Of a stretch of 64,000 bases of DNA, positions 841 through 50,743 are shown piece after piece. Below the pieces are notes generated by a model that was not told where the DNA came from, searched no databases, and saw nothing but the letters and a program-made list of their open reading frames with translations. The position numbers and the translations under genes were made by a program. Source of the DNA: Phoronis australis (Eukaryota; Animalia; Phoronida); contig NMRA01000113.1 in the NCBI GenBank assembly GCA_002633005.1, positions 340,441 through 404,440 on the forward strand. Reading direction: 5' to 3'. Every line of letters starts with the position of its first letter. Position 1 is the stretch's first letter.

Positions 841-1467
841 TTTTCTGGCTCACACGCCCAGCTGGCGAGCAGGGTTTTGAAACCTGGGTATATCCCTGTA
901 TTATATCACTTTAATTACACTAAGTCTGCTGGGCACAACTTTTTGAAAAAAGACACACTTTTTATCATCAGATGCGCCCAAAGGACACAGGTTCAAACCT
1001 GGCCAGGGATATCCCTGCTCTTCATAAGTTCAAACTGACCAATACTCGTTAACTCTGTGCCTGAGCTATGGTCGCAAAGGTTCGAATTCTTATGGTGACC
1101 CTGGTACGCATCCACTAACAGGAATCTGTGAAAATGTACAAATAAAAGGTTTTTTAAGATTTGTTTTAACTGATAGCCATACCAGGATATGACTCGACCT
1201 GATGTCATCCCTCAATGAAGCACTAAAGTCGCCATGATTTGCCAAAATCCAATGTATCTCTTGGACTGTAGCCAACCCTACAGTGGTTCAAAACAAAGAA
1301 GTCAGTAAAAAGATAACTACCCGAACAGCTTTATATTGTGTTATTTTGGTGCTAAACTGAGTGGTTCCCGTACTAGGAGGCATTAGAATTGCTGCGAATT
1401 TTATGTTGTGGTTGGTTGTTTTCAACCTGATTTGTTTTTTTTTTCAGGATAAACTTAAGCCATAACC

Positions 1468-4400
1468 ATGTACAACGGAATAGGTCTGGATACTGCCAGA
1501 GGAAGTGGCACCAATGGTTATGTTCAGAGGAATGTGGCTTTCATACGGCACCACAAGGACCGTGTGGACTACAAGTCTGAAGAAGAAATGAAAAAATTAG
1601 ATCAAATGTTAAACAAGGGCCCTAACCAGGAGATACTGAACCATGACCGCAAGCGCAAAGTGGAGTTGAAGTGTCTTGAAATGCAAGAGTTGATGGAAGA
1701 GCAAGGGTGAGTGGGCACAGCGGCCAGCTGAGCTGATAGTGGATTTACTATCTGTATGGTCCACAGATGACTGGCTCTAATACCTATGTTGGCTGACTCA
1801 TTGTCTACTGACTATTACTCAATTATGTCAGTTTTTCAAACAAGTAAATATTTAGGTTCTTTCATAATACCTGTTTTTCCAATGCAAACTACTGAGTTTA
1901 GTTGGGATTGCTGCAGATGTCTTGATTATCTTATGTTATGAAATGTGAACGTGTTATTTGTGTTTCTGCTGTTAAATGCACGAATTGAGAGATTTCCCTA
2001 GCATTATTTCACACTGTACTTTCTTTTAGTTGAGAATAACTCATTGCTCTTTCAAATTGACACTTTACATAAAAGTATATTATTACTGACAATATATTTG
2101 ATTGTTTTCTGTATTGTTACAGATATTCTACTGAAGAAATTGAGAAAAAGGTGGCTATCTTCAGGAAAATGTTGACTGACAAAGAAGGTGTAACCGAGCA
2201 TGCAATAGATCGGGATGAGGCAGGCCGACCAACGTAGGTTCAAAGTTTCTTATGTTTTATATATGTTGCAGTAAGAGGCCCTCATCGTCTCACTTTTGTT
2301 GGTAAAGATCTGACCCATTAACCTCGAAAACAACTCATGGAGGCAGTTGTCCTCAGAAGGTTTTTACTGTAAATGTTTATGTTGTCATGACTATTAGCCT
2401 TGCTAGCGCTTGCAAGTGCAGGGTTGGTTACATAATATTGTGTAAGGACAGCTTTTCTTCAGTGAAACAGTAAACTGCACATGGGTAGTTGTGGGTGGTT
2501 TAAGCAGTGTATTACAGGCTTTGAATCCCACACAAAGACTTTGGCTGTGGGAAAGAAATTTTCCCCTAAATATTAATTGCCTATCAGATGTCACAGACAG
2601 CTATCCTAGGTGAACGGGGACCATAAGTAAACATAAGACTTTTTGTTCAAGCTTTAATTTTGTATTGTAGTGTGTGGTAATTTTGAGTTAATTACCAGCA
2701 TTTTCCTTCTAAAAACTGCCGGATCAGCCCAATTAGTGGCTTGTATGACATTGAGGTCTATATAGATTATATGTTTGCATGGTTTTGAGATAATCACATG
2801 GGCTGGAATCAAACTAAGATTGTGCTTGTCAATCAGTTTAAAGGAACTTTGTTTTCTTCAGGACTTTGGCTACCTGTTCATCTCATTAATTAGTTCCCTG
2901 GTTAAGTTGCAGTGTCTTATTTTTCTTGCACTTTGTAGAGCTAAAGAAACTCATCAGATAGCAGAAGCAGCTGCTGAGAAAACCCAACAACTGCGTGCAG
3001 CTTTTGGCCTCAGTGAATACTACCAAGATGGCAGCTCATTTGATCCAAACAGGCGAGCTAAGGAGAAAGAATTGGAGGCTAAAGCCATGGCAGAAAAACA
3101 ATATGCGTAAGCAGTTTGCAGGGTTTCAGACAAAATGTCCAAGCACAGATTCAATTAGTTTCTAACGTCACTTGTTATAATGTATACTTAACAGATTCAC
3201 TTTATGTTCAATACATACCGTCACACATTATAATGTACATTTAGCACAGATTCATTTAACATTCAGTACAAGCGGTTACATGTAATATTGTATACTAAAC
3301 CCAGAATTTTCAATTTATACATGCGATTGCATGTTTTAATGTATTCTATCCTTTATTCTTCAACGAGAACAGTACTCTCTGTGGGAGGTTGCTCATCTGT
3401 GTTTTTAATTTCTAATACCATGCTTAACTAGCTATGTATTATAGCTCTGTGAATTTATTTTCATCCAAATTGTGAAACACGTTTGTGATCAAACAAGTAT
3501 AAATTATAGAAATTAATTAACACAAGCAACCAAGGCATTATGATGGACGTCCATTAAAATTGAAAGTCATTTCAATTAGTACCTATTTTTGATGTGAGGA
3601 CCATTTTTTTAATGTGAGTAGAGGTTAGGATGTTTCAAAGCAAATGAACTGCGTTAATATCTTTTTGTGGTTTGGTTACACTAGTATACTTTGATAACCG
3701 TTCTTCCCTAAAGCAAGTTTGTTTTTCTGTGTGTTACTCTTGGACATATCTACAATCGAACAGTTGCTCAGTGGATGAAACCCGTATTGCAAGACTTTAA
3801 TACGTCAGTGAGAGTGCAGTGAACTAGATTATGCAAATTACATCTGGTCAGATGTTTAGTATATCAACACTGTCTTTTTCAGTATTGTCAAGAGTTCAAG
3901 CTCGTCGAGGTCACCTTCGCCGGTACCAAAGAAAAAAAAGAAAAAGGCCAGGTTGGTAGTATTGTATGGTTGATAGTATTGTATGGTTGGTACTATTGTA
4001 TGGTTGGTAGTATTGTATTATTGGTAGTATTGTATGGTTGGTAGCGTTGTATTAGTCAAACTTAGCACCTGATGTCACGCAGTGAACCTGATGTCCTGTT
4101 TACCTGTCCATAGACCCTGAGTTTTGTAAACAGGAATCCTATTTCCCAGTTCTTGTTCCACTGTGGAAGGGAAGGACTGGTGCTCTTTAGTACGCTAACT
4201 GATTATTTCAAGAAAATTTTCTTTTTGGAATGAATTCAATTAAAAGCTCTTTAGGCTTTCCTGATATTTTTGTCTTTCCAAAAATATGATTAAAAGTGTG
4301 ATGGGATCAACCAAATTTGTCTCTGGATGTTATCTGTACCAGTGATGTAATGTGCATGATGATATCCAGTCTTGTACCCTCTGTTTGAATTGGACTCTAA

Positions 4401-7400
4401 CTAAGGTACCCATAATTAAAATGTTGGTCTTTTTCTTTAAATATCTAAGTAACAGGCAGCTGTCAAGTGTGAAACTAGGAACTGAGATAAATCTATTCAT
4501 GTTATCAACAACACTGTGCCATTCTCGTGGTCACGTGACCATGCGTTGTAGGCAAAATATTTTTGAAAGGTACATTGATATGAAGAAAGTCCTTCCACCA
4601 GAATTCAACAAAATGCTCAAAAAGCGTGTCTGGGATTTTCCATAGTTAGTGTCAATATTGTTAATGGTATTTTGTTTATGAAGTTAGGCTACATGTAACT
4701 TGGCAATGAAGTAGCAACCAAAATGGTTGTATTGAGAAAATGTTAATCACTTATGAGCAGATGTTCAAATAGAAAGTTGGTTGAAATTGTGTATTAAGTT
4801 GTTTGTCTTTGTTCAGGTCAGAGACTCCTTCTCCCTCTAGAAGCAAGAAAAAGAAGTCAAAAAAACAAAAACGTGAAAGGTGGGCTTTTTAGAATGGTTG
4901 TTACTAACACTTTAATCTATAGGGTACACTGGTAGAAATTAACAAGTTTTGTGAGGTACAATACGCATGCATTTCAGAAAAACGCACAACTTTGGTTAAA
5001 ACACGCTTATTTTTATGTTCCCATGTATACATATATGGGCGCATATTGCTGTCGTATCTGTCGGTGCATCTGATGTCCTATATCTCCTAAACCTCGTGCA
5101 GCATGTTAATGAAATTTCACAGATGTGCTCCTACAACGCTAACCACAGATGGCCACGAATTTTGAACTGATGTAACTACCCCTCTACCTCCTTGAGGGAA
5201 TTTTAGTTTTTACATTTGCCTTTGAATTTACGGAGTTCTTGGATGGATTTTGTCGTCCGCGTCTCTAGCTGCCAAACTGCTTAAAGGATCATTATGAAAA
5301 TTGGCAGATGTATTCCAGCCAAGAAGACTAGGTTAGCGTTGATTTTTGGATAAGCCCGACTACTGAGATGGTCCCTAGTGGTAATTTTTCTGTCTGTGGT
5401 TGTATTTCCTTTACCTATTATAGGAACTTTGTGGAATTTGGCAAGCATTTTGAATGTAAAAACAGACGTCAACAAGTTTCGGATGTATCCAACTACCGCT
5501 GTATCGCCTAATGGCAACTTTTTCCATTTACGTCGGTTTCTTCAGTGTTTCTTGTAGGTTTTCATGAAATTTTATCAGGTGTCTATAGTGGAGACGACAA
5601 TGTATTCCCATTTTTGGATGGATTCATCATATTCTGCACCACCTGCTATGGCTGCTGGTGACCATATTTCATTATTTGTGAATCTGTCTGTTGGTGTCTG
5701 TTTCGCTACCAGCTAAACCGTTCCAAGGATCGTTAAAATTGACAAAATGTGTTTTTGCTAAGAAAACCACAAATGATGATTTTTGGATGGCTCTGACTGC
5801 TGTGGAACCTTTTAGTCGCAATTTTTTTCCCTTGCAGGATCAATATGGCAAGCGTTTTCCTATGAATGTTACAATGAATGATTACATTTTTCTGGTGGAT
5901 CCGACTAGTGTTGTACCCCCAAGTTTTAATTTTAGTTTTTATTTTTACACTTATATCTATTATTACAGTTTCTTGACAGAATTTCATGAAATTTGTCAAA
6001 AAAGTGTCTGTTAAGGATACCACAATACCTTATTTTTATCTTTAAGAAAATTTCAGATGTTTTCCTACTGGCAACATCATGACTTACATTTTTTTCGACG
6101 GGCTAGACTACTGTGGCACCCCTTAGTGGCAATCTTTTGCATTTACAACAATTACATCTCCTTAACACCTTGTAGCATATATGTGAAATTTGGCAGGAGT
6201 GACAACAGATGACAAATGTCTTTTGGACGCATCCAACTTGTGCTTTTTCTTGCAGAGGCAATTCTATTTTTACGCGTTTGTCTCTCTTTGGAGTTCTTGG
6301 ACAGATTTCTGTGAAATTTGTTTTAGGGAGGCTGCGAAGCCTTGTCATTTTTATATGGGTTCGACATACTCTGTGTTACGTATTGGCCATTTCTGATATC
6401 CCTAGTAGCATACTGTTTGCGGTGCAGTCATGGGTGCATTTCAAGGCTTTGTGTTTCTCTTGTTTCACTTTTTGTATATTTTCGTTTGGTGTTTTTTCTT
6501 GTCATGTCCGAGTACTTGTTCAAATTATACACAAGATATACCCACATCATTACAGTCAGAAGCATACATTCTACTGTGACAATTTCCCTTCCCTCAATCT
6601 CCCCCTCCCTTCCTAGCCATCCCTTCATCTGCAATATTGATTCATTGCATAAGTACTCTGGCATTGTGTATGCCATTTCAACTTCTCAGAGAACTGTACG
6701 TTATTAAGAATTGTCCTAACTGGTCGTGTTAACATCAAGTACTGTGCTCCTTTTTATGCTTGCCTATTATAGAACAAAGGTAAGGAAACATGTTTTAACA
6801 GCAGAAGATTAGAAATGGTTCTTTTTATGGTAACAGTTAATAGTGATTATCTGTGGTTGCAGATAATTCATTTTAACGGTCTATCAAGTGAAGTGTATTC
6901 GAATGAGTACTTGACCGTCACCAGTAATATTACATGTACTGTTCAAATGTTTACACATGTTGCCAGTGTGAGCGTTTGAACATCACTATTGATGCTTACA
7001 GTTATAGTCACTGTGAACATTTGAACATTGCCGTTGGCGCAGTTACCTTAACTTTCATATGTTACAAATTGTCAGTTAACCTTTGAATATTATCAGTGAA
7101 TGATGGCCGTAGGTCGATGTTTCTTTGGCTTGGCTTTCTCATAGTGCCACCTGAATAAAATGTGTTAGGGGTATCACCTGTTTGCATGATATGACTTTAG
7201 AATAAATGTGTTCCTTTTTCTAGAATTGAAATTTGAATTATGTCTATTGCAGATCGGAATCTCCTAAAGCTAAGGAGAGAGGCAAACAGAAAAAGAAGAA
7301 AAAGCAGCGTACTCCCTCTCCTTCTGAATCTGATAGTAATTCTGATAGTGGTAGCCACTCTCACAGGTATAACAAGCATCGCTAATACTATTTAATTGCT

Positions 7401-10400
7401 GTTGTTACATCAGTCTTCATTTATCCACTCTTCTTCCTTTTAATACCCTTCATTGGTTACCTGTGTTTGGTAAGCATTGTATTACTGGTTATATGTTGCC
7501 TCATTTTCTGCATTTTAGTGAATTTTGTTTTGACTTTTGTGTTATGTTAGTTGTTTTTTTGTGTTCTCTTGGGGTTGCTCTTACAAAAGCAAGGAGCAGT
7601 GACATATTGTAGTAACATGTGGGTGAGTGCTTAAATATCATATGTTTTTTGTACTGTGGTGGACGGTACCTTTTGCTTGGTTAGCAACTTGTTAATACAT
7701 AAACGATGCAAAGATCTCTCTGAAAACCGTATTAATCATTGACACCATTCAGCTTTAAAAAGTATACTTTCCCTCCATCATACATGTACATTTATGCAAG
7801 AAAGGTTGTATGAACCCAAATTGCACTTATACACGTTAAAAGATCTTATATCATTTTGTTGCATAGGTAGTGTAAGAAAAGACGTTTGTCATTTGCTTTT
7901 CCATTTCCCACTCCAACTATTTTAGCTGATAACCTTTAGGGTGATGATTTGTATAGTCTTGAGAAAGTATATATTTGATCTTTGACGAGATCGAATTACA
8001 GTGCCTTGGGCAACTTGATCAGAAATAATATAAAGGAAAATCCAAGTCTTTGTATTGACTGGTTTGTGCGCATGTTGCCTGGCTTTACAAAGACTGGGTG
8101 ATTTGACTATAGCCTGATTCCTGCGTTGAAATACTCAGCTTGCATGAGTACACCAGCTGTCAATCCAAGTAGTGGCACGTTATTACTTCTCTCTCTCTCT
8201 CTCTGTCACTGTTGTCAGTAGGAGTGGCTAGGTACTTGTACAGGTGGTCACATGCATGTTGTACTCTACTGTGGTGTTCTGTTACTGCTGACTTACTGGT
8301 ATAGTCCACGGTGACACTGCCCATTCTTCTGTTTGTGTGTTGGGCACAAATTGGCACTGTTGTTGTACCCATGGTAACCTGATACCATCATTGGTCAGTT
8401 TCATCGATACATTGCATTATAAAAATACAAGTTGATGCAACCATGTTGTTGTCAAACAGTTCCTTGTTGCTTATCACTGGTTGTTTAACTGCTAAACTGA
8501 TTCTGGCGTAATTGCCATCACCTTGTGTTGGATGTGTTAATTGCACCATCACATTATTCTGGTGTTGATTACACCATCATGATTTGCCGGTGTTGATTGC
8601 ACCATCGCCGCCGTGTGCCGGTGTTGATTGCACCATCACCTTGTACGGGTGTTGATAAGTTATTTTCCTAGCAACTCTACTTTCTTATTTTGTCACATTC
8701 GTTGTGGAGTTGAGATGTCTCTTTTGTGATACACAGAGAGCAGTTTTGTTAACTCATGATTTACAGAGATGGTTGTATCCCATCGTCAAATTAGTAAGAA
8801 AGTGGCAACTTGCCATTAGTACCTTGCTTTCTACTTCAGTTTAAAACTGCATGCTGTTAATGAGTTTAAGTGTCAGAAATGTCAAGTAAATAGGGTTGAC
8901 CAAAGTTACAGTGCGAGTGGAGTGGCTGGTGAAAACTGCTCACCCCTCAGCCAATCCGTGTCTAAACTGGACATAGCATATTTTGAATTAGATGAATAGA
9001 AATAGATGAACAGAAATATGGTGGCAAATTGCTCAGAGCTCGACTGCTGTCCCTGTGGTTTTGGATTCACTAGATTATTTGGAACACTAAGTTGAGAAGC
9101 ACACAGGAATCAACAAATACATAATTTATGTACAGGATGTTTCAAAAAGATGGACCTGGTTTAAATCTATTCAGTTCACCTTTTTGAATCCCCTGTGTTG
9201 TATCAAGTTACCATGGCAGTACCTGTGAATTTCAAGTCGTTAATCGTTTTAACCAAAACATCTTACGGAATCAAGCATATATTTTTATTTTAAAAGTCAT
9301 TGTTTGAAACAATTACTGTATAAGAGATTCCAAGTAGGAGACATACTATGATTGACTTTGTGTAAGGTGAACATTGTGTATACATTTGAAGTCTTTCATG
9401 TACTGTGTTGATTGTGAGGACTGATGTATATTGTTGAGGTTTTGTTATCTCAATATACGTTCACTTGGCGCTGAAATGTTATGTTGTGTGCAGTTCATAT
9501 GAGGACCATACATTTTAAGGGATGTTCACTGAACTTTCCATAAAAGAGATGATTTGAGTCGACAAGTAGTTCATCAATTTTGATTTGGCAAAACTATGAA
9601 TGACGAAAGAAGTGTACATGTAAAGAGTTTATTATTGAAACTAGTGTATGTTTTTGTTGATTGTATGGATTTATTTGTATCACCTGATCTTAAGTATTAA
9701 TTAGCAAAAGTTTCTGTTTAGCACTTATCTCATTAATTGGTTTTCGGTGGTTCAATCTTCTGTTTTACCTAAGTTCAATAGATTTGTTGTAAATAAACTT
9801 TTTGTGTTTCTATTCATTGTGCTTCTAATTCTAAGTCAGTCGTGAAATGACATTGTCTTTATTGAATTGTTTAATGAATTTTGATTGTATTATAGTTGTC
9901 AACAAATAAAAATTCATTATTTTTGTCTCTTTTGTGCTTCGTTTCAATGCATTTTCCCAGGGGTTCTACAAGAGGTAAAACTTTTTATCAGAAGTTGTCA
10001 CAAACAACCAAGATAATTTCATATACATGTTTTGGGTAATGCATCACATTACCAGCTGTAGTTCTTGCATTATTGTTAGTCTCAGTTTTGTTGGTGTGGT
10101 TCAAAACTTTTATTGTTTATGGCAATGAAACAAAATCACATTGCAACCATTTTGTGCTTGGTCAGTTGGTGTTGATTCAATCCAAGGTAGTTTATATTTG
10201 CGGAGAATAAAACTAGAATCAATATCAAACGACTAAACATTGGCCTTGAGTATGCAATGTGGTTTTCATTTCATACTTTGGAAGTCAAAATAGGCTGTCC
10301 ACTACCCATGTTGCATGCATGTGATAATATGTGGTCGGACAGTTTCAATGCATTCATAGATATTCTCTTATTTATGTGATGTGCTGCAGACCCAATGGTA

Positions 10401-13400
10401 ATGTACAAAGTGTTGTCTGCTTGGGATTTGGATTTTTAGAGTCTATTCAATTTGGTTTTTAACAATTTGATAAAACAGTATTTTCATACATGTTGGGGAA
10501 ATACAATTCTTCAAGTGTTAAAGTATGTGTGTGAATAGACTGGCTTTTCTTCTTACCACGGAGTATGTTACAACCATGTGTACATTTACAGCACGTGCAG
10601 TCCGCCATCTGGTCTTCAGACCAAGAAGAAGTCGACAGGAATTGAAGGTGGACAGAAAAATGGCATTCAATTAGAGAGCTTGAACGTGGGTGCTGTGACG
10701 AAGAATGGATACAAGGCTACTCCTGCTGAAAGGTTGGTGTGAATCTAGCTGTATTCACAGACAAGTGATAGATTCAAAGAGGTACCATCAGTACCACTAC
10801 TGGCATTGTATGCTTATGTTCAGTTAGGTGACTAGGTGCTCCGATAAGCTGTTTGATTGCACAAATGATATGATATTCCTCTACACAAGTTACCTGCATT
10901 TGAAAGTTAATGTTCTGGTTGTCTAATGTCAGAAATAGGAAAATCACTAGTTGTCGATGAGGCCACATTTCCGCAAGTCACATTTAAATCACTGGAATAT
11001 TTGTTATATGTTATGAAGGTGAACTTCTTTCACTTGCTGCTTGTTTATTGGGATGCATATTTAGCTGAACATGAAGTCTGTTTCATTCGTTTAACACTTT
11101 TTCTCATTTGTTCTCCTTACCATATTAATCCGTAAATTCATCTTTTCACTTATTATCACAACTGATGTTTGTTGTTCAAAGATGGTGAGTTACCGTTTTG
11201 TTTACAACATATGTTCAGACTTCTTGACTATCTGGAGTTATTAGCTTGATTCACTTGTATCTATTTCCATGTTTGTATTGACAATGTAGTTTGTGTGTTT
11301 GGCGTTTATTAACTTGATGTCAGTATGTCTATAGATCAACAACACCTATTCATAACACAAACCTGCAGTCCAAGTCCCCTCAGGAACCATCCAAGACAGT
11401 GAAATCAAAACATTCACGATCCAAAACACCCAAATGGTCACGTTCTCCAACTCCTGCAAGGCGCCGCAGGAGCTACAGTAGATGCAGGTCTAGGTAAGTG
11501 TAGTGTGCGATCTTAACATATAGATGAACCAATGCTGCTGAATTTTTGGTACTGCCTTGGCCGCATGCTCCTTAAACCAGTTATGATATTTTATTCACAG
11601 TTACATATTCTATGTTATCATCAGTTTGCTGCATTTAGTAACTTTTTTGTTTATAATACCACGCTATGGTCTTATTACACTTCTTATGTTTGTTTACAAC
11701 ACCACTGTCAAGGTCTTATTACATTTCTCATGTTTGTTTACAACACCGCTGTCAAGGTCTTGTTACACTTCTCATGTTTGTTTACAACACCGCTGTCAAG
11801 GTCTTATTACACTTCTCATGTTTGTTTACAACACCGCTGTCAAGGTCTTATTACACTTCTTATGTTTGTTTACAACACCACTGTCAAGGTCTTATTACAC
11901 TTCTTATGTTTGTTTACAACACCACCATCAAGGTCTTATTACACTTATGTTTGTTTACAACACCACTGTCAAGGTCTTATTACACTTCTTATGTTTGTTT
12001 ACAACACCACTTTAAGGTCTTTCTTCACTTCTTGTGTTTGCTTACAACACCGTCAAGGTCTTACTGCACTTCTTATGTTTGTTTACAACACCACTGTCTA
12101 GATCTTACTGCACTTCTCATGTTTGTTTACAGTTCCACTTCAAGGTCTTACTACACTTCTTCATCCTCAAGGTCTTGGTCTAGGTATTGAATTGTATTCG
12201 ATGTTTTGTTTCAAATTTGTTATCATTTCATGGTTAGACTATGGTAATACCTTGTAAATTGTAAATTAACACTGTCTTATCAACTATCTTCCACATGCCT
12301 TCATTCAGCTTTCATGTCATCCTAGATCACCCAGAAAACGAAGAAGTAAAAAGTCTCGCAAGCGGCGTTCCTACACCCGTTCACGAAGCCGACGACGTTC
12401 ATACTCTCGATCTCGCAGTAGATCCCGTAGTCCATCTATTCGTCGTCGTTCTGGATCACCAAGTCATCTTGATAGACGTCGGATAACCAGGTAACCTTGG
12501 CCGCACTGTTGTGATTAGCAAATTGATGTTGTCTCGTTTTCCTATCTTCAAGCATATTTTGTACATCTCTGTACTCTTATTATTATTATTTGTTACATTT
12601 TTTTCATCATTCTAATTTAGATTTTACCTGTTTGACCTTCTGTGCAAAGATGTCATATTGTTTATGAGTTGTATTTGTGTATTTCCTTTTCTGACTCTCT
12701 AAAGATCACATGACAGCTACAAGGATAGAAGGAGTTATTCTCGATCATCATCATCATCAGCCCGATCGTCGAGGTCAAGGTCACGATCTTATGGTGGACG
12801 ATACTAGAAGCAGCCGTGCGTGAAGACATGGTAGACTGCCAGTTTGATGCTAGATCTATGCTGCTCACTTTTGACCTTTCACACGATTAACCCTAACCGT
12901 TTGGCTGCTTGTTCATAAAGAGATGAACTAAGAACGCAAGACTTTAATTCACACACTGGTTTTGCCATGATTGCTCTCATCATTTCTTGGAAAAGGTTAT
13001 CAATATTTTTCATCACTTAAGATATTTCGAAACATTGGTTACATTCTGTTGCAAGAGTGGGTTTACAAAGTGACAATTTTAATTTTAACATTGGTTGTGA
13101 ATTTTATGATATTTTGTAAACTTTGATGAGGCCAGTGCTGCCGTGCTAGCGCATTTTTTATGAGCAGACAGCTATTGCTAACTAAACTTACTAATCTTCT
13201 TTACAGATGCACAGCTGTGATGTCTGTACATTTGACATTGAGTTGCACCAACTACCACTTATTAACATTGAATGCTTCATTAAACCAGTTGTTCTTCTCA
13301 CTCCTTTAACACTGCTTTCTGGTTTATGTAAACTTTGCAGATTTAATAAGTTGTAATATGTTTTTCTTTTTTACTTTTCTCATTTGAGACTGACCTAGTT

Positions 13401-16220
13401 ACCTCTATTTGCATGACAAGGTAATGGGTGTTCCTACTCCAAATTATATTCCTTACTGTGGGTCACTTGATAGTCCTGAAAATTGTTCCTCCAAATGTCA
13501 CTAGATGTCAGTAGTAGTTGCTGTAGAGTTGCCCAGATTGTTGTAGCTTACACCTGTTTCTTTTTATTGTGAAATTTGAGCCAAACTTTAATTTCTCTTC
13601 TTGTCTTCATTTTGATGGTAAGCAATATTCATGGCCTTGTACGGTCGGTTGTTTAAGTAGATCAGGCACACTCTTGGAGACCTAGTGTGAGCTCATAACA
13701 TGGTATTGTAATCCTTGCTTGTCTTATGCACTGTCCACTCACTCTGTCGTAGTATAATGTTTTGTGGCCACATCGTTTATCATCATCAAAACGAGCTAAA
13801 TTTTGTCAAATTTGAAACCACATTGGTAAATCCTTGGGATTTGGCCAGAACAACTTGATCATGGTTGCTGTTGACTGTGATGCCATCATTGTTCTTTACA
13901 AACTTTTTTGCATGTTTCTGTCATCCTTGTATTCATCCTGTTCACGTTCAACATCGCATTCGTAATTCTTATCCTGTAATTCCATCAGTATATATGGGAC
14001 TCGCATCCATGTCAAATATTCACTGTGAACGTGCCTGGAACTCTCCCTACAAAACACAATATTAACGATAGTTCAGAAAACCTGGCGACTCACAGTTCCT
14101 TTAAATTAGATGTGGAAGTAGCACTTTACTAACCAAGAAATCATATCACTCCCAAATGTTAACCTTGCACTCAGGCCTTTATGCAGCGTACGTCCTGGGC
14201 GTCCAAATGGATGCCCTAGCACTAATCAGGATGCCCTGGCAAGGACGCCCAGTGTATCATTTGGACGCCCACTGTCAATAGGAACCTTTCAAGTTTCTGA
14301 AGGCTCACAATGGGGGCTCTTTTTACAAAGCAGGAAGAAATATACAATGTACATACAAAGTATATGCATTGTTGCTATTTTGACACTTGATTGACAGCAT
14401 TGTAAAAGTCTTGGTCTACACATTTTTTTAAGTAAAAATGCTCACCAAAGAAGGCTGTTTTATAAACTTAGATGTAAAAACCTTGATCTATGCATTTGTT
14501 GTAAAAAAATCTGTGTGTTTGGGGGTATTGCTGGGGGTTGGGGGTTATGCGTTGGAATCATGGACGCCCTGGAATATTGGGAACCCCATTTTGGACACCC
14601 TATTTTCAAAATCCTGGATAAAGGCCTGCTTGCACTTCACCAAACACAAGTACACCACAGGATGAACAAGAATCGGGTCAATACTCAAAGCACAACTTTT
14701 GGTAACCTGGAACAATCACTAATCGTTGAGTACCCGAAACAACATCATTGGTCACACCCTGCCTGACATATTACAACCGTACAATGCTGCCATCTATCGA
14801 CCAGTTGCCAATATGCTCAACACCCTGTTTCATACATAAATGTATTGCTCTCTCTTGTCTGTCAATAGACACAGCAATTCTCCACGAGCTTACTCGCCGC
14901 ATTTCTCTCACGAAACATTTTGCTCCTCATTCATTTTGTATGAGTCAACTTGGTGAGAATTCTATTCGTCACCTAATTCGCACACAATGAGGTTTGCACT
15001 TAAGAAAATGTCCATGCAAAATCTTGCCATTATTTCTAGTAGTGCACACCTCTTTAACTGTGTTAGTAAGGTCTGAAAAAATAAATAACGTTGTATAGTC
15101 ACTCCGTAATTCATGCACGTGCACGGGATATCTCATGTTGTTTACACATGGTGAAAGGGGTGACCTGGATGAGTGTCGTGTCACCCAGAGTTGTATGGTC
15201 AAAACAGTTTTTCACCATTTATAGGGTACTCTTATACTGGAACAGGATGAAGTAACTTCAACAGGATGAAGTAACTTCATTACTGTTATTTTGACCATGT
15301 TGCCAACCTGCAGGCATTTTGTTCAATTCACACATGTGCAGTCAGCGATGCTTGATTTCTTAATGAATTTCCCACACCTGTCAACTATGCTGATTATATG
15401 TTCAGTATATTTGGCACATCCTGACTATCAGGAAAGTATATTTCATTATGTAATAAGTGGGGAATTACTATATCCTAGCTGTGCATGCTTACAAGTCCTA
15501 AAACTAGTGTGCTGTTTGTCCTCCCTTCTAAATCTAGTGCTTTGCATGCTTGTAGATGCCCATTTATTCTGAATGATGTAGTTTGTGCATACCGATTCAT
15601 TTTGTGTGATGTAAATTATGCATACTGATTCATTCTGACTGATGTAGGTTGTGCATACCAACTCATTGTAGTGGATGTAAACTGTGCACACTGAACGATT
15701 CCAGTTTAGGTAGTACACATAGATTCAGCATATTGACGGATTCTGATTGACATAAACTATACCGATTCCAATTGATATAGAATGTGCATACTGATTCTGT
15801 CATTTATGTAAATTGTAATAAGACTGATTGTGACATGTTGTCATCTTTTTCAGGATTTATTTTCAAAGTGTCCTGTTACAATTTTGTTTGATTTATAAAG
15901 ACAAGTAAGAAACAGGTGGCAGAACATCTTCATGTCCTGCAGATTTTTGTGATGTGCTCAACTTTAAATTGCAACAACATTTAAATAGATTTTTATCGTT
16001 TTTGATAGTGTTTTAAGTTATTCTACCATATTGCGCTATGAATATAGTTATGGCAGACAAATTCTTGTCTGCCCTCTATAAACTGTATGATTTCTTCTCT
16101 TGTTGCAGTGCTCGTAAATGCCCCATCCCGTATCACCGACCAAGCCCTGCCACACCAAGCTCAGACAACAGCTGGTCCCCCCCTCGTAGACGAGTTTACA
16201 GACGCAGTCGATCCAGCTAA
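1468..16220 (+). CDS. SRRM2: Serine/arginine repetitive matrix protein, invertebrate Srrm2/3/4 (cwf21 domain + RS region + eMIC last exon), ~446 aa isoform
   Basis: N-terminus [22 protein letters not shown] is the Cwc21/SRRM2 signature. Exons, all GT-AG: 1468-1706, 2123-2233, 2939-3106, 3883-3951, 4817-4879, 7253-7366, 10592-10732, 11335-11493, 12326-12490, 16109-16220. They total 1341 nt in one open frame. An acceptor at 1446-1447 implies an upstream non-coding exon. AATAAA at 17230. Confidence 0.92.
3951..4052 (+). repeat. 17-bp minisatellite x~6 starting at the exon-4 donor
   Basis: Unit ggttggtagtattgtat repeated directly from the splice donor. Confidence 0.85.
5011..6420 (+). mobile_element. 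Helentron-associated (HINE/DINE-like) non-autonomous element with degenerate internal tandem units
   Basis: Starts TTTTATG + short hairpin cccatgtatacatatatggg + catattgctgtc. Recurring units resembling atgaaatttggcag...tttttggatggatccgactac...cctagtggc. Related copies at ~27890-28950, ~36430-36980, ~38406-38550 and ~53355-53520. Confidence 0.6.
9131..9196. mobile_element. Tc1/mariner-type MITE remnant
   Basis: tacaggatgtttcaaaaaga ... cctttttgaatcccctgt imperfect inverted termini beginning with TA. A related end occurs at ~34403. Confidence 0.45.
9961..9974 (+). other. Candidate 14-nt frameshifting microexon in Srrm2/3/4 intron 6
   Basis: ttttgtctcttttgtgcttcgtttcaaTGCattttcccAG | gggttctacaagag | GTaaaa: long pyrimidine tract, TGC near the acceptor, and a GT donor 14 nt downstream. 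Confidence 0.45.
11668..12180 (+). repeat. 44-bp minisatellite x~11 in Srrm2/3/4 intron 8
   Basis: Unit ggtcttattacacttcttatgtttgtttacaacaccactgtcaa. It explains the three overlapping periodic ORFs at 11532-12190. Confidence 0.95.
12705..12807 (+). CDS. Proximal alternative last exon of Srrm2/3/4 (RS-rich tail, no complete eMIC), gives ~443 aa isoform
   Basis: Pyrimidine tract ttccttttctgactctctaaAG followed by a phase-2-compatible frame (R)SHDSYKDRRSYSRSSSSSARSSRSRSRSYGGRY* whose RS composition matches the gene. Confidence 0.75.
14172..14628. mobile_element. hAT-superfamily MITE, 457 bp, with 8-bp target-site duplication
   Basis: TIRs caggcctttatgcag / ctggataaaggcctg (14 of 15 match), flanked on both sides by CTTGCACT. 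Subterminal ggacgccc repeats. Confidence 0.9.
15570..15830. repeat. Degenerate ~33-bp tandem repeat
   Basis: Recurring ctgattcattctg..gatgtaaattgtgcata. The minus-strand ORF shows 11-aa periodicity (QNESVC). Confidence 0.7.
16109..16220 (+). CDS. Distal alternative last exon encoding the C-terminal part of the eMIC domain
   Basis: Acceptor ttcttctcttgttgcAG. Joined to exon 12326-12490 it reads GSPSHLDRRRITS-ARKCPIPYHRPSP, matching the SRRM3/SRRM4 C-terminal motif RRITSARKRPIPYYRPSP. Confidence 0.88.
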
Positions 16221-18235
16221 CATCATCCTTCACAGTCCACATGTTCTAAATGTCTCATTCACAACTTGAATTACAGTAAAACTCGCACAACTGGTATCGA
16301 GTCAAATTGAGATTTTTTCACAGTAGGACAATTTGGACTTGTCTGTCGAAGGAGTTCAGAGAAAATCTGATTTTGCATGCATGCCTACTTGTGCCCTTTT
16401 ACTGTACATCGTTTCTCTGAATGCATTTACCGTTGTACCAGTAGTACAAGTATCTATTGCTTGTGAGGAGTATTAGTGTGGAATATTAAGTTTATATTTA
16501 TTTATTTATTTATAACAAGTCATAGAATAGTTGTGGGTTGTGCAATACATTCCTTAGTGTTTAGTCTAAATTCAAAAATGTTACCTCAACAGGAGCTTTG
16601 GTGCTCATGTTGTGTTCCTACTACCCTGGTAGCGAATGCCATCAAACATGTTTTCATCACGTTCAATGAACACAGCGGTCTAGTGTTTACTTATTTTAAC
16701 CTGATTAAAACAAGTGTTATGCCTATCCACAAAGTTGCAATTTCTCTATAAAATTTTTGAATAATGCACATGGCATGTATTACAACACCACTAAAGTAAA
16801 AATTGAAGAATGCTGAAGCTGGTAAAGCACTTTAAATCCAGTCAAAAACTTAATTAAAGATGTTAGCTTTCAAGCTTGATAGGAGCAGCCCTTAATAAGG
16901 TATGAAGACAAATGGCACGAAAGGCCCTCTTGTATCAACCTGTTCAAATCTACAAGGGGAGGGATGGGGGAACAAAGACGGAAAATGAGGGGAAATGGTT
17001 AGAGGTTTTGGTTCACGTGGCCCATGTCTTTATGTACCACCATTCTCATGGTTGTTGAAAAACAATTAAAACACTGAGATTTCTTCAGATCTCCCAGAAT
17101 GGTCGCCTTAATTTCTACCGGATTTTTATGTGTTTTTGTAGCTTCTGCATTGTTTCATTTTATCTGGTGTCAACACATCAATTTTAAGAATTAAAGCATG
17201 TACTATGTTATGTGCTTGGAGAACTTTGAAATAAAACTTGAAAAATAATACCCACTGCTGCATTTTCTATTCACCATCTTATCTTCTAAGTCCAGTGCAG
17301 CATTATAATAACATTTATAAAGTGGACAATGTGTAAGACCAATTTACGGTGTTGTTGAGCTTGTACATTGTGTACAGCATATAGTAAGGGATGATCTTAT
17401 TTTAAACATTACTAAAAGAGGGAGCAATACTTGTAAACTCAAATTGCCTCTGGAGGTGAAAGAGAAATCAGATCCGTCCCAAAGTCCTTGTCCTCCGTTG
17501 TCATGATTACAGAATGCACAAGTACGATTTAAGAAAGATCCTACCAGAAGTTTAGGAGACGGAGCCACAGATTATAAAAAACAAAACTGCCACTACGGTG
17601 TGCCACCGTCGTACACTAGTCGGAGTGTCACGAAAATCATTGTCCAATAAGAACATAAGCCACTAAGTTTTCATAATAATCCTTTAAGTAGTTTGCTTAG
17701 TAATACCTCAAACCACCCGAAAATGGGGAGGTATGAGCCAAGCGGACACCAACAAACAAAACTTAAAAAACGACTACTTGTTCTCGGAGAATACGCCAAA
17801 TCCATCCAAAAGCGAGATGCCGGCATCATCTCCATAATGGAATTGAAAATCCAATTGAGGAACTGTGAAGACTGACTCATAGGAGAGGAATAGAAAAAAA
17901 GTTCCACTAGAGCAGGGGCGGATCCCGGATTTTGAGTTGGGAGGGGTCAGGGCACGGGAATAACCAGAATTTGGGGAAAATGCGTGCGCCCAACCTAAAG
18001 TGTGGGGACGCAGAGGCCTCGAATGTTCGGGGTTGCGGACCTGTAGACTAAAAAAAAAGATAAACGGGGTTTGTTCAGGGCCTATGCGTTGTTTATCCCG
18101 GCACCTATAACCCCTGACGTCACCACAGAAACAGAAACAAGACAACAACGGAAGCAAAAGGCTTGGAGGGACAGTGAGTACAGACTCAGGCTAAACAGTT
18201 TCCGCAATCAGAAAAACGCAACCATAAACAGTTAA

Positions 18236-34500: not shown

Positions 34501-37500
34501 CGCTACTTCGCATTTCTCCAACTGGCAGCTATGAATGCTTTATGCTGGTTGAGATTACTATAGCCACTTACCACAGTACACAGACATTTATGACTGGCTT
34601 CTTTTGTTTGGGATCAGGGAACAGACATGGCTGTCATGGATAACAGCTACCTGTTCGGGGCAACATTCTTTCCTGCCCATTCTAGACACTGTGCACTATT
34701 CAACTAAATCCATCATTGAAAACTAAACTTTTTTATTATTTTAAGAGCAGATTGAAATTAGTTCAATTATACAACAGTAAAAAAGGGAAATGGTATGCCT
34801 TGCAACTGGTGTTCCTTTGTTGATATGCCCCAACCCTGAGCAACACAATGGGACGACTTGCCTTGTGTACACTACTGCTTAGTGATCTTAATACTTCCTA
34901 AGAATGCAGTGAAATTTGAATTTGGGAGTATATCATAAACTTACGATTGTAGAGACAGCAATTTCATAATTTCATACTGTGTCTTGAAACACACTTGTGT
35001 TTCCTCAGTGTATGCCTGGTGCATTATACCATTATTTGTCGATTAACATTTTGTCTAACCAATAAAGTGAAATGTTGAAAACCCACCTTCTGTCAAAAAT
35101 ATCTTTTGATTTAGACCGCTTTAGCTGTAAAATTGGTCTCAATTGATTTCTGGAGTTGGAAAGAACTGAGACTTTGTTACTGCTGGAGGCCAGGCCCAAC
35201 AAGTTTACTTGTCACGCCGGGTCATTCTAAGCTCGGGGTGTGATACCAAGCCAATAATGAACTTTTAGTTCTTGCAAAGTACAGAAGCTTCTTGTTATCT
35301 GAGTATGTTGGCCTAATAACTTGACACCAGTTCTGTAGCAGTACATGGTCTGAATCAAATTTTGGAATGCGGGTTTGCTACAGCTTTGAAATCTTTCCAC
35401 AGGCCAGTGTCGCGTACAAGCTGGACATTATTGAAAGTTTCGCATTCGGCTCAATGATATCTGCGGTTGACCCTGTAGCCACTCTAGCCATATTTCATGC
35501 CCTGGATGTTGAACCCATTTTGTGCATGTTGGTATTTGGTGAGAGTGTGCTCAACGATGCTGTCTCCATTGTGCTTACCACGTAAGTTGACGTGTTTTAA
35601 CTCGATGTATGACTTGCTGAAATTGATAAACAAAATAGGTTGTAAGATTTAGTGTTGGGTGGTAATGAACATGCTCGAATTAAAACCTGCCTTTACTATT
35701 GGAGTTTGAGAACATGTTGTAGTGTTATTTGCCTGTTTGTGCATATGTGATGGTCAAACAAGGCTATTTTAACGTGTTGGTAACTGTTGATAGTGGATTT
35801 TGCAAATCTCCAACAACTAGGGTATTGCCAGGTGGTTAAGTTCACAGCCCAGCTCGCTCTTTATTATTGTTTTCAAGACAATCTCAGAGATTGTCAGCTG
35901 CAACATTCAGAGAATTTCATCAAAGATATCACAAAAAGCATAGTGTACGTAACTGGCTCAGAAGAGCAAATCCAAGCATGACAATAATTTGCTCAGACGA
36001 GGTGGATCAAATTGGCCCATAAGTGGTGGACCCTAAAATGTAAGTAACTGGCTCGTAAGAGGTGGACCCAAAGATGTAAATAATTGGCTTAGAAGATGTA
36101 GACCAAAAGATGAGTCTTGCTGTCTTGATGTGCTTCATGACTGTCTTTAGGTTGTACATTAAACATTGTGAAGTTGTTAACAGAATACTACACTAGTCAG
36201 CTTTTTCCAATTAAGTCCACGTACTTTATCAAAATTCCACTTTTTCTTTCAGAACTATCGTGGAATTGTCTGATCCCAAGATAGCAGCCATGAGTGGGAT
36301 GGCTGTCTTCTTTCATGCTGTTGGACGCTTTTGTCTTATGTTTTTTGCATCAGCTGCAATTGGAGCTGTGTTTGGTGTTATAAGTGCAATAATATCCTTT
36401 TGAATACTTTACCCGTCGAAAAATATATTTACGTACTCACATGTACATTTGTGGTCACATGTTAGGGTCATCTCCATGTAGACGTTATGCATCTGCTGCT
36501 GTGTCTCATAGTTGCAGGATCTTTATGAAATTTGGTATATGTTACGATCAAATTGACATATGACGACTTTTGGACTAATCTGACTACCGCTTTAGCTTCT
36601 AGTAGATTTTTTTTGAAATTTGCCTCTGTATCTACCTAACTTTCTGACAGGATTTAATGAAATTGTGCCAATACCTATTGGATGGATTCAATGTATATTT
36701 GTGCTTCATGGGGTCTGTTTTCATTATTTGTTGAGCCTATTTTTGGTGCCTGCTTCTCTTTCTACTGGAACGATCCTTATGAAATTTGGAAGATGTGTTC
36801 CTGTTGAGGAGAGCATGACTAATGTTGATTTTCAGATGAGTTTGATAACTGTGGCACCTCCTAGGGTCAATTATATTTCTTTGTCGCTCCCTCAAGTTCC
36901 TTTATGGATCTTCAATCCAGCAAATATGTTTCTATGAAGGAGAGCACCTCATTTGTATCTGTGGGCACATGTCAATGCTCTGTTATTGTTGTTATAATTA
37001 TTGCTGTTAATTTATTATAAACATTAAAGGGTTTATTTCTTCTTCAGCAGTTCTAGTTTGCTCAAAATCAGTGATAAGAAGTTGTTTTACTTAACCAAAA
37101 GCACCTTCTTAAATTTATTGACCTTCGTAAAACTCCGTCGTTGGAGTTTGCTATGATGTTGGGCTTCTCCTACGCACCATATGCCTTGGCAGAAGGACTT
37201 CATTTGTCTGGTAATGTACACTTTTGATTGGAGTGGGTATGAGTAGATAAATATGCTGTCAGTGATATACTAGTGGTTCATAGTTTACATCCAACATGTG
37301 TTGTTTTGGTCCTTTTAAGTGCCACAGATTGATCATACTTTGAAATGAAATTAAGTTAGTCATGTGACACTTTTGTTCAAAAGTTTACTGCACTGATTAA
37401 CAAGTAAATTTAGGTCTGATGTACAAACAGACTACAGTAAAACTGCTTACAAAAATTTGACTAAGTTTGGTCAAGCATGATCGATGATGGCATATTGCTA

Positions 37501-46100: not shown

Positions 46101-47920
46101 AACAACTAAAGCTCTTGGTATAAACATGGGTTGCAATATTTTCTCATTTTGGCAGTCTGGGCTCAAGCATCCATGAATTGTTAGTTCTTTCCAGGACCAG
46201 AAATCCCATCTGTTATGACTAAGGAACAATTTGAGACCTGCTTCATATTGGGTACAATTCAAGTTGTTTTTAAGATGGAAGTCGGCTATAAAGCCACTGC
46301 ACTTTAAGATATCCGCATGGTTTACCTTTGAACAAAAATCAGCATTAAAATTTGTTTTTTTCTTGAAGTGGAGGGGGACAAATGCTCATTTGCTTTGCGC
46401 TTGTTAGACTTCATAACAGTAACTACAGAGAGTGTGTTTGTTAGAACTATCATGTGTCGGAATGACCTTTTTGTGCAACATTTGTGCAAAACTCCCTGCC
46501 AAATGCAAAGAGCATGTGTTGCTTCGAATTGATGAGGCGCCAGTGTTGCCTTCAACCCTACTTGTATTACTTGCGAATAACAAATTGATTACAAAATATT
46601 ACACATACAAAACTACAATTACTTACCTTCTAGTGTTTTGTCATAACTGAACTATTCAAACAAGTTGTGACAGCCTGGTAATATAACGCAGACACTTTTC
46701 AGCATGGAGCCAAGTAAATCGCTCTCCTTGGATTGAATTTAAGCATTTGTGTAAAGGATGAACATGGCCAATGTTTATTCATCTAACAGATACAGTAAGT
46801 TTGATTTTGTTGGGTTTAGTGATTATCAGACACTATAATACCTCTATTCATAAGTTATCTCTGGCTTCTGGAGATAGCTTTCAGCTAGGATTGTCAATTT
46901 ACTACTAATGACACCTGTTGGTAACACAGGTCAGTGGATTTATCCCCTTTTGTGATAACGAAGACATGGCTACATTTGATGTTGCTTTATCTATTGGTAT
47001 TTTAACCTCCTTGAGCTTGTTAACTCTTACGGATTACTTTAAGTCTCACAGATTTCATGGCACCCAAAATCCTCAAGGGTGAAAGGAAAGAGTACCAGAT
47101 TTCTTAAATGCACTTCTGAATTAAAAAATACTAGATTTGGATGTCACTTAATTCTGTTTCTAGAACTAGTCCATGATTTCACAATTGTCTTTACAAATTC
47201 TTGCTGAAAAATACAGATTTTTTAAAATGTCACAGGCAACATTCATAATTGAATGACATGTGTGCCCACCCTGTCAGCAGAGTTAAAACAGTGTCATACT
47301 TAACAAAAGACAAAATCACATATGAAACAACGGGTACAATTGTTACAAAATAGACATGTAATACCATGAAGAAGAGTACAGTAGCCAGAACAAGAACCAG
47401 CATAACAGACACAATGCCAACTAATGAAATGCCAAGACATCTCTGACTGCTACCTTGTCGTTTTGTCTTGAACTAAAGATTTGTAGTTTGGTTTGTCCAA
47501 TCCTAGAGCAGGTCAGAGAACTGAGTGAAAAGATGCCTTAAATTTTACAGTTCTTTTCCTCAGATGTTTTTGAATGTTAAGAAATTTGTTGGTGTATGCC
47601 CAACAAAAAGATTATCAAAATTTACATGAAAGGTAGCCATGCATTCAGTGATGCTAGTTTAAAAGCAGGCATTCCATTATATGTGATATGTATATTGCTA
47701 AGTCATGCATTGGAGACATTGTCTTCAAATATGAAAGAATATAATGCTTGGTACTTTAGCTCAATTATAAAAACATCTCAAGAAATTGAATATCAAGAAC
47801 ATTGTCCACAAAACAATACTAAAAACTGCTTACACCTTAGAGGTAAGTACTTAGCATATATAAAATCTGACACAATGAATATGCCAGTAATAGTACAAAA
47901 AGTCCAGTTCAAGCTTGAAC

Positions 47921-50743
47921 CTACTGCACGTTAGCCTCAACAGCGGGTTCAGGCAATTTTTCATTCTTTTCAATCATTTCATTGACCTCAGCCACCACAT
48001 CAATGGTGCGAACTGGCAGGACAGGCCTCTCCATTTCTTGGAACTCAATGCCATGTTTCCGCAACAATCCCTGAAGAACTTCAATTTCGTGCTCCTGCGC
48101 CTGACAGTACTCTCTGAACTTGGCTAGTTCCTGCTCAACTGCTTCACGCTGCCGCCTCTCTCGTTGAATTCGCTTGTCCGCTTGCGCCTTCACTGACAAA
48201 ACAATGCCTAAAACAAAACGGTATACGTTGTGGTCAGTTGTTTTACTGTACCACAGTTATCCTGTACATGCTTAAATGAAAGTCATCAAAGCATTGAGGT
48301 AAATAACACGTTCCATCCTGAATACAGCATCGTCAATCAAATTATGCATTGTTTAGTACCAGGAACAGCCCAGAGGACTCTTTTGGAAATCTTTTTTCTT
48401 AAGAAGACACTAAACCCAGTTTTGGTGACTTCAACCAACCCTCATTATGTCCCCTGCAAATTCATTGGCATGTACTCACTTGAGTGATAAAAGCCAAATT
48501 CAGATAGCCTCACTGTAGCATACAATGGACATTATGGTTCTTGGTGGGTAGTCTTTTCTTAGTTGTCATGTAACTCCCCTAAAGCGTTGTTTGTGCTGGC
48601 CTGTTTAGCAGACATCGTAAGAAGTTTTCAAACTTTTGCCCCAAACTTTTGAGGATTGACAAGGGTTAGAGAGTATTGTTTTGTTTTTGAGAATTGAATG
48701 GGAAAGTCATTTATTTCAGTCAGAAGGCCAAAACCAGATTTAATATCCTTTTAACAACTTACCAATCTTTAAAAGATAAAAATTAAGAAATTGACGACAT
48801 CTCACATGGGCGTACAAAAAAAATCCCCAAATACCACACATGGAGGTTTTATTAACTTAATTTTTCCGAAAGCCTGCCATGCACACTCCTTCTTGGTAGT
48901 GCTCTTTTGGAAATCCTTCGTACCCACAATGCAACACATCTGTCTGGCATTATCATGGAACATCACACATATTGTTTATTGCTCTTATACTGCTTGCTTG
49001 TTTACATCTAAATCATCATCTCATTACGCATTCAAACACCATCAAAGTTTTCTTGTTGTTCAGAGAGTTGCATTGCTAACAACATGAAATTGGGCAAGGG
49101 CATTTGTGAATTCTGAAAACTATCCTTGTGCCGCACAATCCATTTAAATTGAAACAGAATTTGCTTTGAATTAGTTTCAACTATGAATCAGGGATTTCAC
49201 GAAAGAAAGATCTTCCTGAAATGATCGCTTTGCCTAAGTGACCCAAGATTGACTTTTGGAAAAAGTGGTGGGGCTCATTTGTAAACTAATCGCCCACAGC
49301 ACCCTCGTTAATTCATGGCTTTCAAGAGGAAGTCTTCACTTTATCAGTAGCTTGGCTACTAGAAGAGAAGCGACATATGTGTTGACAAGTGATGAATGAA
49401 CTTGAAATGTTCCTTTAAGGTTATGTAGAACCCTGGAAAAAGTATGTCTAAATTTGGCAAACTTCGCAACATCATAACTCAGAAACGGATGATCATATTC
49501 ACACCAAACTTTTTGGCACTATGCTACATGCGCAGTCTCCAAAACTCTGCTAAATATTTCTTTCAAAACTGTCCACTTTTGCAAGAAGGACTATAAAAAT
49601 TGGGACTTTTATGAAAAAAGTTGCTCAAAATGATGATTTAGAATTACGTAACAGCATTTCTGACACTTCGTCTTGAACATTTACATTGAATGAAACTTGG
49701 TCAATTTATTGATACCATTTTTCGCCATCCAGGTAAAGACAGTATCACATGACCCAATTAATATCAGATTGGTATTAAAGTCAAAAATCAAATTTTATAA
49801 GCTTCCTACATTCATAAAATAAATTCTTCTATTGAAATAAAATCTATATTTATAGATATGTGGCTAAATATACTGACAAGTCATTATGTCCTACATAACC
49901 TTAAAGATAAAAAATTGAGAAGATTTTGACATCTGGCCCTTTTCTCTAACGTATACCTGTCCAGAAATGGAAAATGATCCAGAAAGAGGCTTTTCCAAAC
50001 CTTGTTTCCAAAAGAGCCCCCATCGGACATTTTTCCTGGTGGAGGCTCTTTCAGAAACCCCCAGTACTGTGCAAAAATGTATCACAATGCACGTCAAAGT
50101 ATTTCAATGCCTGTCACATGGTGCTAATGGAAACTTGCTATCAATGGAGAGTAATCAGTTTTTGAAGGGTAACAAAACTGACACTATTTTACATCATTCA
50201 ATGTAACAAGAGACGGAACTAATACAATCAGACAGACATCATACCATTCAACACTCTTGTGATACGCCACAGACGTAAGATGACTAACAATCCCACACTG
50301 GCCTGCACATCTTCACTGTCAATGAAAGCAATGTCCAGAGCAAATGAAACAATGACAATAACAGCATCAAATATCTCCATTTTGTGCTTGAAAAAAGTCA
50401 TCCGCATGGCATACAGTTTAACGATCAACTCAATGATAAAGATGCTTAAGATCGCGATGCTCATGAAATGTAAGGTTTCTGCAGCAATCTTAAGACTTTC
50501 CTCATGGCCCTGGATAGCTTCCAAATCAATAAGCAACTCGGAAATGACAAGAAGACAGTCAAGAATGACTAGACATATGATAATAATCTGGAACTTGTTT
50601 GAGTGGATGACATGATTGACACGCTCATGAAATGGCAGTGGAGCGTTCTTGGCCTCATCCGAGTCTGTTGTGACGGAGCTGCTGGTCTCTTCTTTCTCAA
50701 TCACTCTTTCAAGGTCATCATGAAGTTTCTTGAAGCCATCCAT
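47921..50743 (-). CDS. HVCN1: Voltage-gated proton channel Hv1, ~261 aa, two coding exons
   Basis: Exons 50743-50245 and 48207-47921, phase-1 GT-AG, 786 nt. S1 selectivity Asp in VILDCLLVISELLID, S3 EIFDAVIVIVSFALD, S4 RLWRITRVLNG, and a C-terminal coiled coil. No pore domain. Confidence 0.95.
49419..49900. mobile_element. Kolobok-type MITE (482 bp) in the Hv1 intron
   Basis: TTAA|GGTTATGTAG ... CTACATAACC|TTAA: perfect 10-bp TIR, purine-purine terminus and TTAA target duplication. Confidence 0.8.

Follow-up and report, generated by a model that had tools for sequence, protein, structure and literature searches.

The window analysed here is a stretch of 64,000 nucleotides (nt) from Phoronis australis (contig NMRA01000113.1), and its forward strand carries a gene that we identify from its sequence as Srrm234, the orthologue of SRRM2/3/4 with an isoform that encodes the eMIC domain. 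Intron 6 of this gene contains a 14-nt segment (9961–9974) whose acceptor has the architecture of eMIC targets and whose inclusion would shift the reading frame to an early stop. The original prediction proposed that the segment is a poison microexon through which the eMIC isoform triggers nonsense-mediated decay (NMD) of its own mRNA. The analysis bears out the identity of the gene, the resemblance of the acceptor to those of eMIC targets and the frameshift. Inclusion of the segment is found nowhere among the RNA rows listed; the self-braking role is a tentative reading, weighed below against its rivals.

Exon structure of Srrm234 and its eMIC switch

The gene is assigned to Srrm234 because exon E1 encodes the start of a cwf21 domain and because joining E10 to E12 restores an eMIC motif. 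In a Pfam profile search, E1 matched PF08312 with E=1.2e-7, above the cut-off; its best single-domain homologues are 82–87% identical, and those with names are mollusc and annelid proteins called SRRM2-like. E10 alone gave a weak match to PF15230 (SRRM_C; E=2e-4, below the cut-off) that covers one half of eMIC only, and the motif rebuilt from E10 and E12 is also present in 6 of 120 homologues. These two features agree with the earlier description of the gene as an eMIC-encoding master regulator of microexons. RNA evidence over positions 1300–17500 came from one contig set (X1) and three raw-read runs (X2–X4, approximately 18–19% of each run); X2 and X3 are mostly eMIC-off. The exon model is as follows:

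1448–1706 (+): E1, first coding exon, with ATG at 1468 and the cwf21 start (PF08312); E1–E2 joint in all four RNA sets
2123–2233 (+): E2; RNA joints, open frame
2939–3106 (+): E3; RNA joints, open frame
3883–3951 (+): E4; RNA joints, open frame
4817–4879 (+): E5; RNA joints, open frame
7253–7366 (+): E6, with its donor upstream of the candidate; by read-through also the terminal exon of a short isoform; RNA, frame
7367–9955 (+): 3′ untranslated region (UTR) of the short isoform, inside intron 6, with its 3′ end between approximately 9720 and 9955; sense depth, X1 contig
10592–10732 (+): E7, carrying the TAG at 10672–10674 that is reached only on inclusion of the 14 nt; E6–E7 RNA joint
11335–11493 (+): E8; RNA joints
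12133–12183 (+): E9; RNA joints
12326–12490 (+): E10, first half of eMIC/SRRM_C; RNA joints
12705–12830 (+): E11, stop exon with TAG at 12805–12807, a fly-type eMIC-off exon; RNA joints, frame
16109–16220 (+): coding part of E12, second half of eMIC; motif restored by E10–E12 joining and found in 6 of the 120 homologues

The boundaries of E2–E11 were taken from RNA joints, with the exception of the E9 donor, which was set by a GT and the frame. A start of E8 at 11369, part of the first exon model, was rejected, as it broke the frame and the RNA acceptor lies at 11335. All ten internal coding exons (E2–E11) have lengths that are multiples of 3 and are in phase 2, in agreement with the earlier statement that the 14-nt segment would be the only internal exon to break the frame. 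In X1 and X3, unjoined read ends before 1447 indicate a further, non-coding exon upstream, beyond the positions 1300–17500 covered by the RNA comparison. E9 (51 nt, in-frame) is partly skipped, with 4, 9 and 1 skipping reads versus 18, 17 and 0 entering it. Tandem repeats were seen by eye at 11680–12135 (units of ∼46 nt), which stop at the E9 acceptor, at 3950–4025 (∼19 nt) and at 56700–56980 (∼61 nt).

The eMIC on/off switch of the gene is E11, and not the 14-nt segment. The in-frame TAG of E11, located 23 nt before the last junction, interrupts the eMIC motif, and splicing of E10 directly to E12 would yield a genome-encoded eMIC isoform of 463 amino acids (aa). The long isoform with E11, the major form in X2 and X3, is supported by 34 and 32 reads across the joint into this exon and by 22 and 29 reads across the joint out of it (X2 and X3, respectively); the E10–E12 joint is not among the RNA joints listed for X1–X4. 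Splicing of E6 to E7 is common to the eMIC and non-eMIC long isoforms, so it is not eMIC-specific. Both forms of the protein occur in Haliotis (P0044/P0045), and a transcript contig (L014) contains the stop exon together with the distal exon. In a distant animal Srrm234 (L051, 3439–3880), a short intron splits the two eMIC halves, and reading through it gives a stop. In fly Srrm234, a proximal 'poison' exon is skipped under Elav/Fne control and eMIC is then made (bioRxiv 10.1101/2021.02.24.432780). The proximal exon of Drosophila Srrm234 isoform G resembles E11 in its role, as a stop exon between the eMIC halves that is spliced to a distal exon. It differs from the 14-nt candidate in that it is a full-size exon that is skipped to turn eMIC on; in the case of the candidate, eMIC would promote inclusion and thereby lower its own level.

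The first reading of the sequence missed this role of E11 and also missed the fact that most of intron 6 is a 3′ UTR. In an abundant short isoform, E6 is read through into intron 6 up to a TAA at 7383–7385, giving a protein of 260 aa with cwf21 only. Sense depth is 10.9–37.3 in bins covering 7792–9955 in X2–X4 and then 0.8–1.5 over 9956–10496; the X1 contig ends at 9721. X4 consists almost solely of the short isoform, and X2 and X3 contain short and long isoforms. Direct E6–E7 joints, which skip the candidate, are represented by 30 reads (19 starts) in X2 and 16 reads (11 starts) in X3, with none in X4 and X1. X4, for which no E6–E7 or E7–E8 joint is listed, nevertheless has reads in E7 (depth 9 at position 10623 and 7 at position 10649); unspliced RNA would be the simplest cause of this depth. 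Five spiralian homologues (P0002, P0003, P0011, P0017 and P0053) stop abruptly at approximately 220–250 aa with a tail that looks like read-through, and their sequences suggest that they share an isoform ending at an intronic poly(A) site, in their case probably one exon earlier.

The 14-nt segment in intron 6

The following elements lie in or near the candidate:

9792–9797 (+): AATAAA, which the short isoform may use as its poly(A) signal; sequence
9905–9910 (+): AATAAA, another possible poly(A) signal for this isoform, immediately 5′ of the tract; sequence
9913–9917 (+): possible branch point YTNAY, with the A at 9916 (−45); sequence
9917–9957 (+): pyrimidine tract, with TGC at 9935–9937 and 9948–9950; sequence
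9958–9960 (+): CAG acceptor, 4.0 bits with a matrix trained in the window
9961–9974 (+): candidate frameshifting microexon of 14 nt; sequence, with no inclusion among the RNA rows listed
9975–9980 (+): GTAAAA donor in the context GAG:GTAAAA, 4.3 bits
10312–10321 (+): two overlapping TGCATG downstream of the candidate, which we take to be Rbfox-type motifs; 0.45 expected in 617 nt, a weak signal

The two TGC triplets, the CAG, the 14-nt length and the GAG:GTAAAA donor are all where the original prediction placed them. The splice-site matrices were built from 25 donors and 26 acceptors of Srrm234 and a neighboring Na/H exchanger gene, the model of the latter resting on an open frame of 651 aa, without RNA. 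The candidate acceptor has the architecture of eMIC targets. Flanked by AG and GT, the 14-nt segment is within the 3–27 nt range of eMIC-dependent microexons, and TGC occurs at −13 and −26 of its acceptor. The zone free of AG upstream of the segment is 63 nt (longer in 2 of the 26 modelled acceptors), and the pyrimidine share of the tract over −45 to −4 is 0.76 (higher in none of the 26); the tract also holds two TCTC/CTCT tetramers. In the two gene models, 6 of the 26 acceptors score lower than the candidate acceptor and 4 of the 25 donors score lower than its donor. A TGC at −20 to −6 is also present in 4 of the 26 ordinary acceptors. It has been reported that eMIC targets carry UGC close to the 3′ splice site, a UCUC-rich tract and an extended AG-exclusion zone (bioRxiv 10.1101/2021.02.24.432780; PMC8797185), and it is the match to these listed features that suggests an eMIC target. 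Their 5′ splice site has been described as strong in mammals and weak in flies, and their branch point as a strong CUAAY (same sources).

Translation of the spliced frame confirmed the predicted consequence of inclusion. Placed between E6 and E7, the segment leads to a product of 286 aa that ends at the TAG at 10672–10674, 58 nt before the E7 junction and 433 nt upstream of the last junction in the eMIC isoform, which exceeds the 50–55 nt of the junction rule for NMD. That this rule holds for spiralians is an assumption; without decay, the inclusion product would still lack eMIC.

The rarity of the site was assessed with a moderate rule (AG-free zone of at least 40 nt, pyrimidine share of at least 0.70, TGC at −20 to −6, exon of at most 27 nt and donor of at least 3 bits). 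The candidate is the sole match in the 13.2 kb of Srrm234 introns, and there is none in 18.6 kb of introns of the neighboring gene (31.8 kb in total). The acceptor part of the rule (AG-free zone of at least 40 nt, pyrimidine share of at least 0.70, and TGC) selects 1 of the 707 intronic YAGs in both genes, and a variant with a consensus-match donor gives one match on the plus strand of the window and none on the minus strand. However, dinucleotide shuffles of the Srrm234 introns contained at least one match to the moderate rule in 74, 47 and 36 of 300 runs (shuffled in 100-nt blocks, in 300-nt blocks and as whole introns, respectively). With thresholds fitted post hoc to the candidate, these counts fell to 6, 1 and 0 of 300. 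Shuffles thus yield such sites in 12–25% of runs, so that the fair chance of one in the Srrm234 introns is 0.12–0.25; the candidate stands out, but chance could plausibly account for it. Loose thresholds gave four matches in Srrm234 and three in the neighboring gene, and approximately two matches in each shuffle; the additional sites at 6256, 6773 and 7519 and the three in the neighboring gene fail the moderate thresholds. One of them, at 6773–6779 in intron 5, is a second, weaker microexon candidate, a 7-nt AG..GT segment that has three TGC and whose donor is strong (10.9 bits), but whose AG-free zone (31 nt) is shorter and whose tract (0.64) is weaker than at 9961.

Related loci were found with E1, and 80 of 151 were considered. 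Fifteen of these 80, selected because they look animal-like and continue downstream of E1, contain one match to the moderate rule in 81.9 kb, and none of the loci of at least 3 kb among the 80 extends to the exons that flank the matching intron. A metagenome scan with E10 gave no relative among 597 matches.

The Na/H exchanger gene used in these comparisons spans 22604–43145 (PF00999, 651 aa) and is presumably NHE8-like. It contains an AT-AC intron (36392–37104, donor ATATCCT), of the kind typical of the minor spliceosome. Further along the window are an ion-transport-domain gene on the minus strand (47900–50743, PF00520), which we take to be Hv1/HVCN1-like, and a DUF1168 gene on the plus strand (51719–55340), which we take to be PRKRIP1-like. 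In the human genome, HVCN1 and SRRM4 are both located on 12q24, and PRKRIP1 and SRRM3 share 7q; an old linkage of SRRM, HVCN1 and PRKRIP1 genes is possible.

Precedents in other splicing regulators

The closest precedent is a 20-nt exon of mouse Srrm3 (MmuEX6021616, mm10 chr5:135867127-135867146), which is eMIC-sensitive, that is, lost on Srrm3/4 knockdown or Srrm4 knockout (PMC8797185, table S2), and which is flagged NMD_in (PMC13078869, table S2a). For a 20-nt Srrm3 exon with other coordinates, classed as NMD-stimulating and taken to be MmuEX6021616 on another assembly, the proportion spliced in (PSI) rose with cycloheximide from 0.57 to 0.81 at day 12 and from 0.33 to 0.64 at day 24 (PMC11188260). 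In human SRRM4, a 16-nt exon (chr12:119144539-119144554) is also flagged NMD_in, with a model call of nonNMD in the same row (PMC13078869, table S4a). The candidate shares with the mouse exon its small, non-triplet length, its eMIC-encoding host gene and its location 5′ of the exons for eMIC; the human exon is likewise a non-triplet microexon with an NMD flag. All three lie in long introns, near their 3′ ends, at distances to the next exon of 1026 nt (mouse Srrm3), 826 nt (human SRRM4) and 617 nt (candidate). The flanking exons measure 178/347 nt in Srrm3, 157/305 nt in SRRM4 and 114/141 nt here, so that the phase of the intron probably differs from that in Srrm3. The mouse exon is spliced and regulated, whereas the candidate is predicted from sequence, and Srrm3 always carries eMIC, whereas the Phoronis gene does so in one isoform only. 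If the candidate is real, its mode of action would match that of the mouse Srrm3 exon.

Autoregulation by poison exons has been described for other splicing factors, namely SR proteins, hnRNPs and ARGLU1 (PMC13542418; 10.64898/2026.09.14.751627). Their poison exons resemble the role proposed for the candidate as frameshifting or stop-containing exons in the factor's own pre-mRNA that are coupled to NMD; they are usually highly conserved and have been demonstrated by NMD inhibition. Term look-ups found no mention of Srrm3 or SRRM4 in the main texts, as far as available, of PMC13078869 and PMC11188260. The available parts of PMC13281805, 10.1101/2025.04.24.650407, PMC10551640, PMC12626424, PMC11188260, PMC13078869, PMC13542418 and PMC11648925 contain no passage on eMIC self-regulation by a poison microexon; Torres-Mendez 2019, which was outside the scope, may state it.

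Weighing the readings and the proposed eMIC brake

In the reading that we put forward, with a confidence that falls somewhat short of even, the 14-nt segment is a poison microexon spliced in by the gene's own eMIC isoform in the cells that produce it, an isoform that would in this way cap its own level. In neurons, skipping of E11, which is driven by ELAV in flies, would produce the eMIC isoform; eMIC would bind the UGC region and recruit SF1/U2AF, some of the long transcripts would then contain the 14 nt and would either undergo NMD or encode the 286-aa protein without eMIC.

Several results weigh against this. The E6–E7 skipping reads described above number 46 and come from runs that are mostly eMIC-off; neither 7366>9961 nor 9974>10592 is among the joints listed for X1–X4, from which the expected E9–E10 joint is also absent, and the 14-nt segment is not found as inserted letters between E6 and E7 among the insert rows listed, which go down to 2 reads. 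If the listed rows are ranked globally, inclusion would amount to at most 2 reads per run, corresponding to a PSI of at most 0.06 in X2 and at most 0.11 in X3, versus 0.33–0.57 for the mouse exon in neurons without NMD block. No CTAAY branch point occurs within 100 nt upstream of the candidate, where YTNAY is found at −45 only, and the donor is weak and common, with 141 of 2144 intronic GTs equal or better (4.4 equal GTs per kb). The introns flanking the candidate (2594 and 617 nt) are long relative to those of fly eMIC targets, and the available 59 of 63 places in the fly eMIC exon table contain no row named Srrm234 (PMC8797185). Flanking exons have lengths of 3n here and of 3n+1/3n+2 in Srrm3 and SRRM4; this difference makes it improbable that the intron corresponds to the vertebrate one, and strict homology is unsupported. 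The shuffle results add to these points, as does the start of the tract 7 nt behind the AATAAA at 9905, at the end of an abundant 3′ UTR. With eMIC scarce and NMD active, both readings predict little inclusion, so the lack of listed inclusion is weak evidence and lowers the odds of a poison exon only a little.

The main rival explanation is a look-alike at a poly(A) site, which we consider a real though lesser possibility. Because intron 6 up to approximately 9720–9950 is the 3′ UTR of the short isoform, the U-rich tract could have a second cause. A U/GU-rich downstream element is expected just behind a poly(A) signal; the tract may be such an element belonging to the short isoform's poly(A) site, or else a U-rich site of the ELAV type, with AG and GT placed by chance and no meaningful splicing. 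Such an origin is in agreement with the position of the tract and with the sense coverage, which stops in the bin that contains both AATAAA signals and falls approximately tenfold or more in the next, although either of the two signals may be the one used. The moderate-rule matches in 74 of 300 runs after local shuffling of the introns and the lack of inclusion among the RNA rows listed also fit a chance origin, which is in turn opposed by the 0–6 of 300 shuffles that reach the candidate-level (post hoc) thresholds and by the mouse paralogue, which holds an exon of precisely the proposed type, with a similar flagged exon in the human one.

Alternatively, the segment could act through decoy splice sites, which we regard as unlikely. 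U1 suppresses poly(A) sites nearby; here, with the tract occupied by U2AF or eMIC and the donor by U1 just behind the poly(A) signal, cleavage would be blocked and the long isoforms favored; the segment would rarely be ligated, and the feedback would be positive rather than negative. The acceptor, the donor and the AATAAA at 9905 all lie within 75 nt, and isoform usage, almost all short in X4 and mixed in X2 and X3, would suit such control. Yet X2 and X3 read through despite little eMIC isoform. Equally improbable is an eMIC-independent or noisy event, either inclusion at a low level or splicing to 9961 as the acceptor of an alternative terminal exon ending at an AATAAA at 10206 (280 aa), for which this signal, an open reading that adds 26 residues and low sense depth over 9956–10496 in all four RNA sets can be cited, but the depth suits unspliced RNA equally, and no 9961 joint is among the joints listed.

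Should the 14-nt segment be a poison microexon, it would supply a ceiling on eMIC, a dose that must be tightly limited: eMIC outside neurons harms fly tissue (bioRxiv 10.1101/2021.02.24.432780), and microexons vary in their sensitivity to SRRM3/4 level (bioRxiv 2024.09.17.613571). No mechanism that sets such a ceiling is described in the literature searched. In the Phoronis gene, the brake would add to the intronic poly(A) switch and to an ELAV-type on-switch. A broader and more doubtful proposal is that an eMIC-triggered poison microexon is bilaterian-wide, present in spiralian Srrm234 and in vertebrate Srrm3/SRRM4 by inheritance or convergence. Were the segment a look-alike, the more modest result would still stand that spiralians share the on/off arrangement of eMIC known from flies; if the spiralian case is true, it would turn a few rows of mouse and human supplementary tables into a cross-bilaterian principle.

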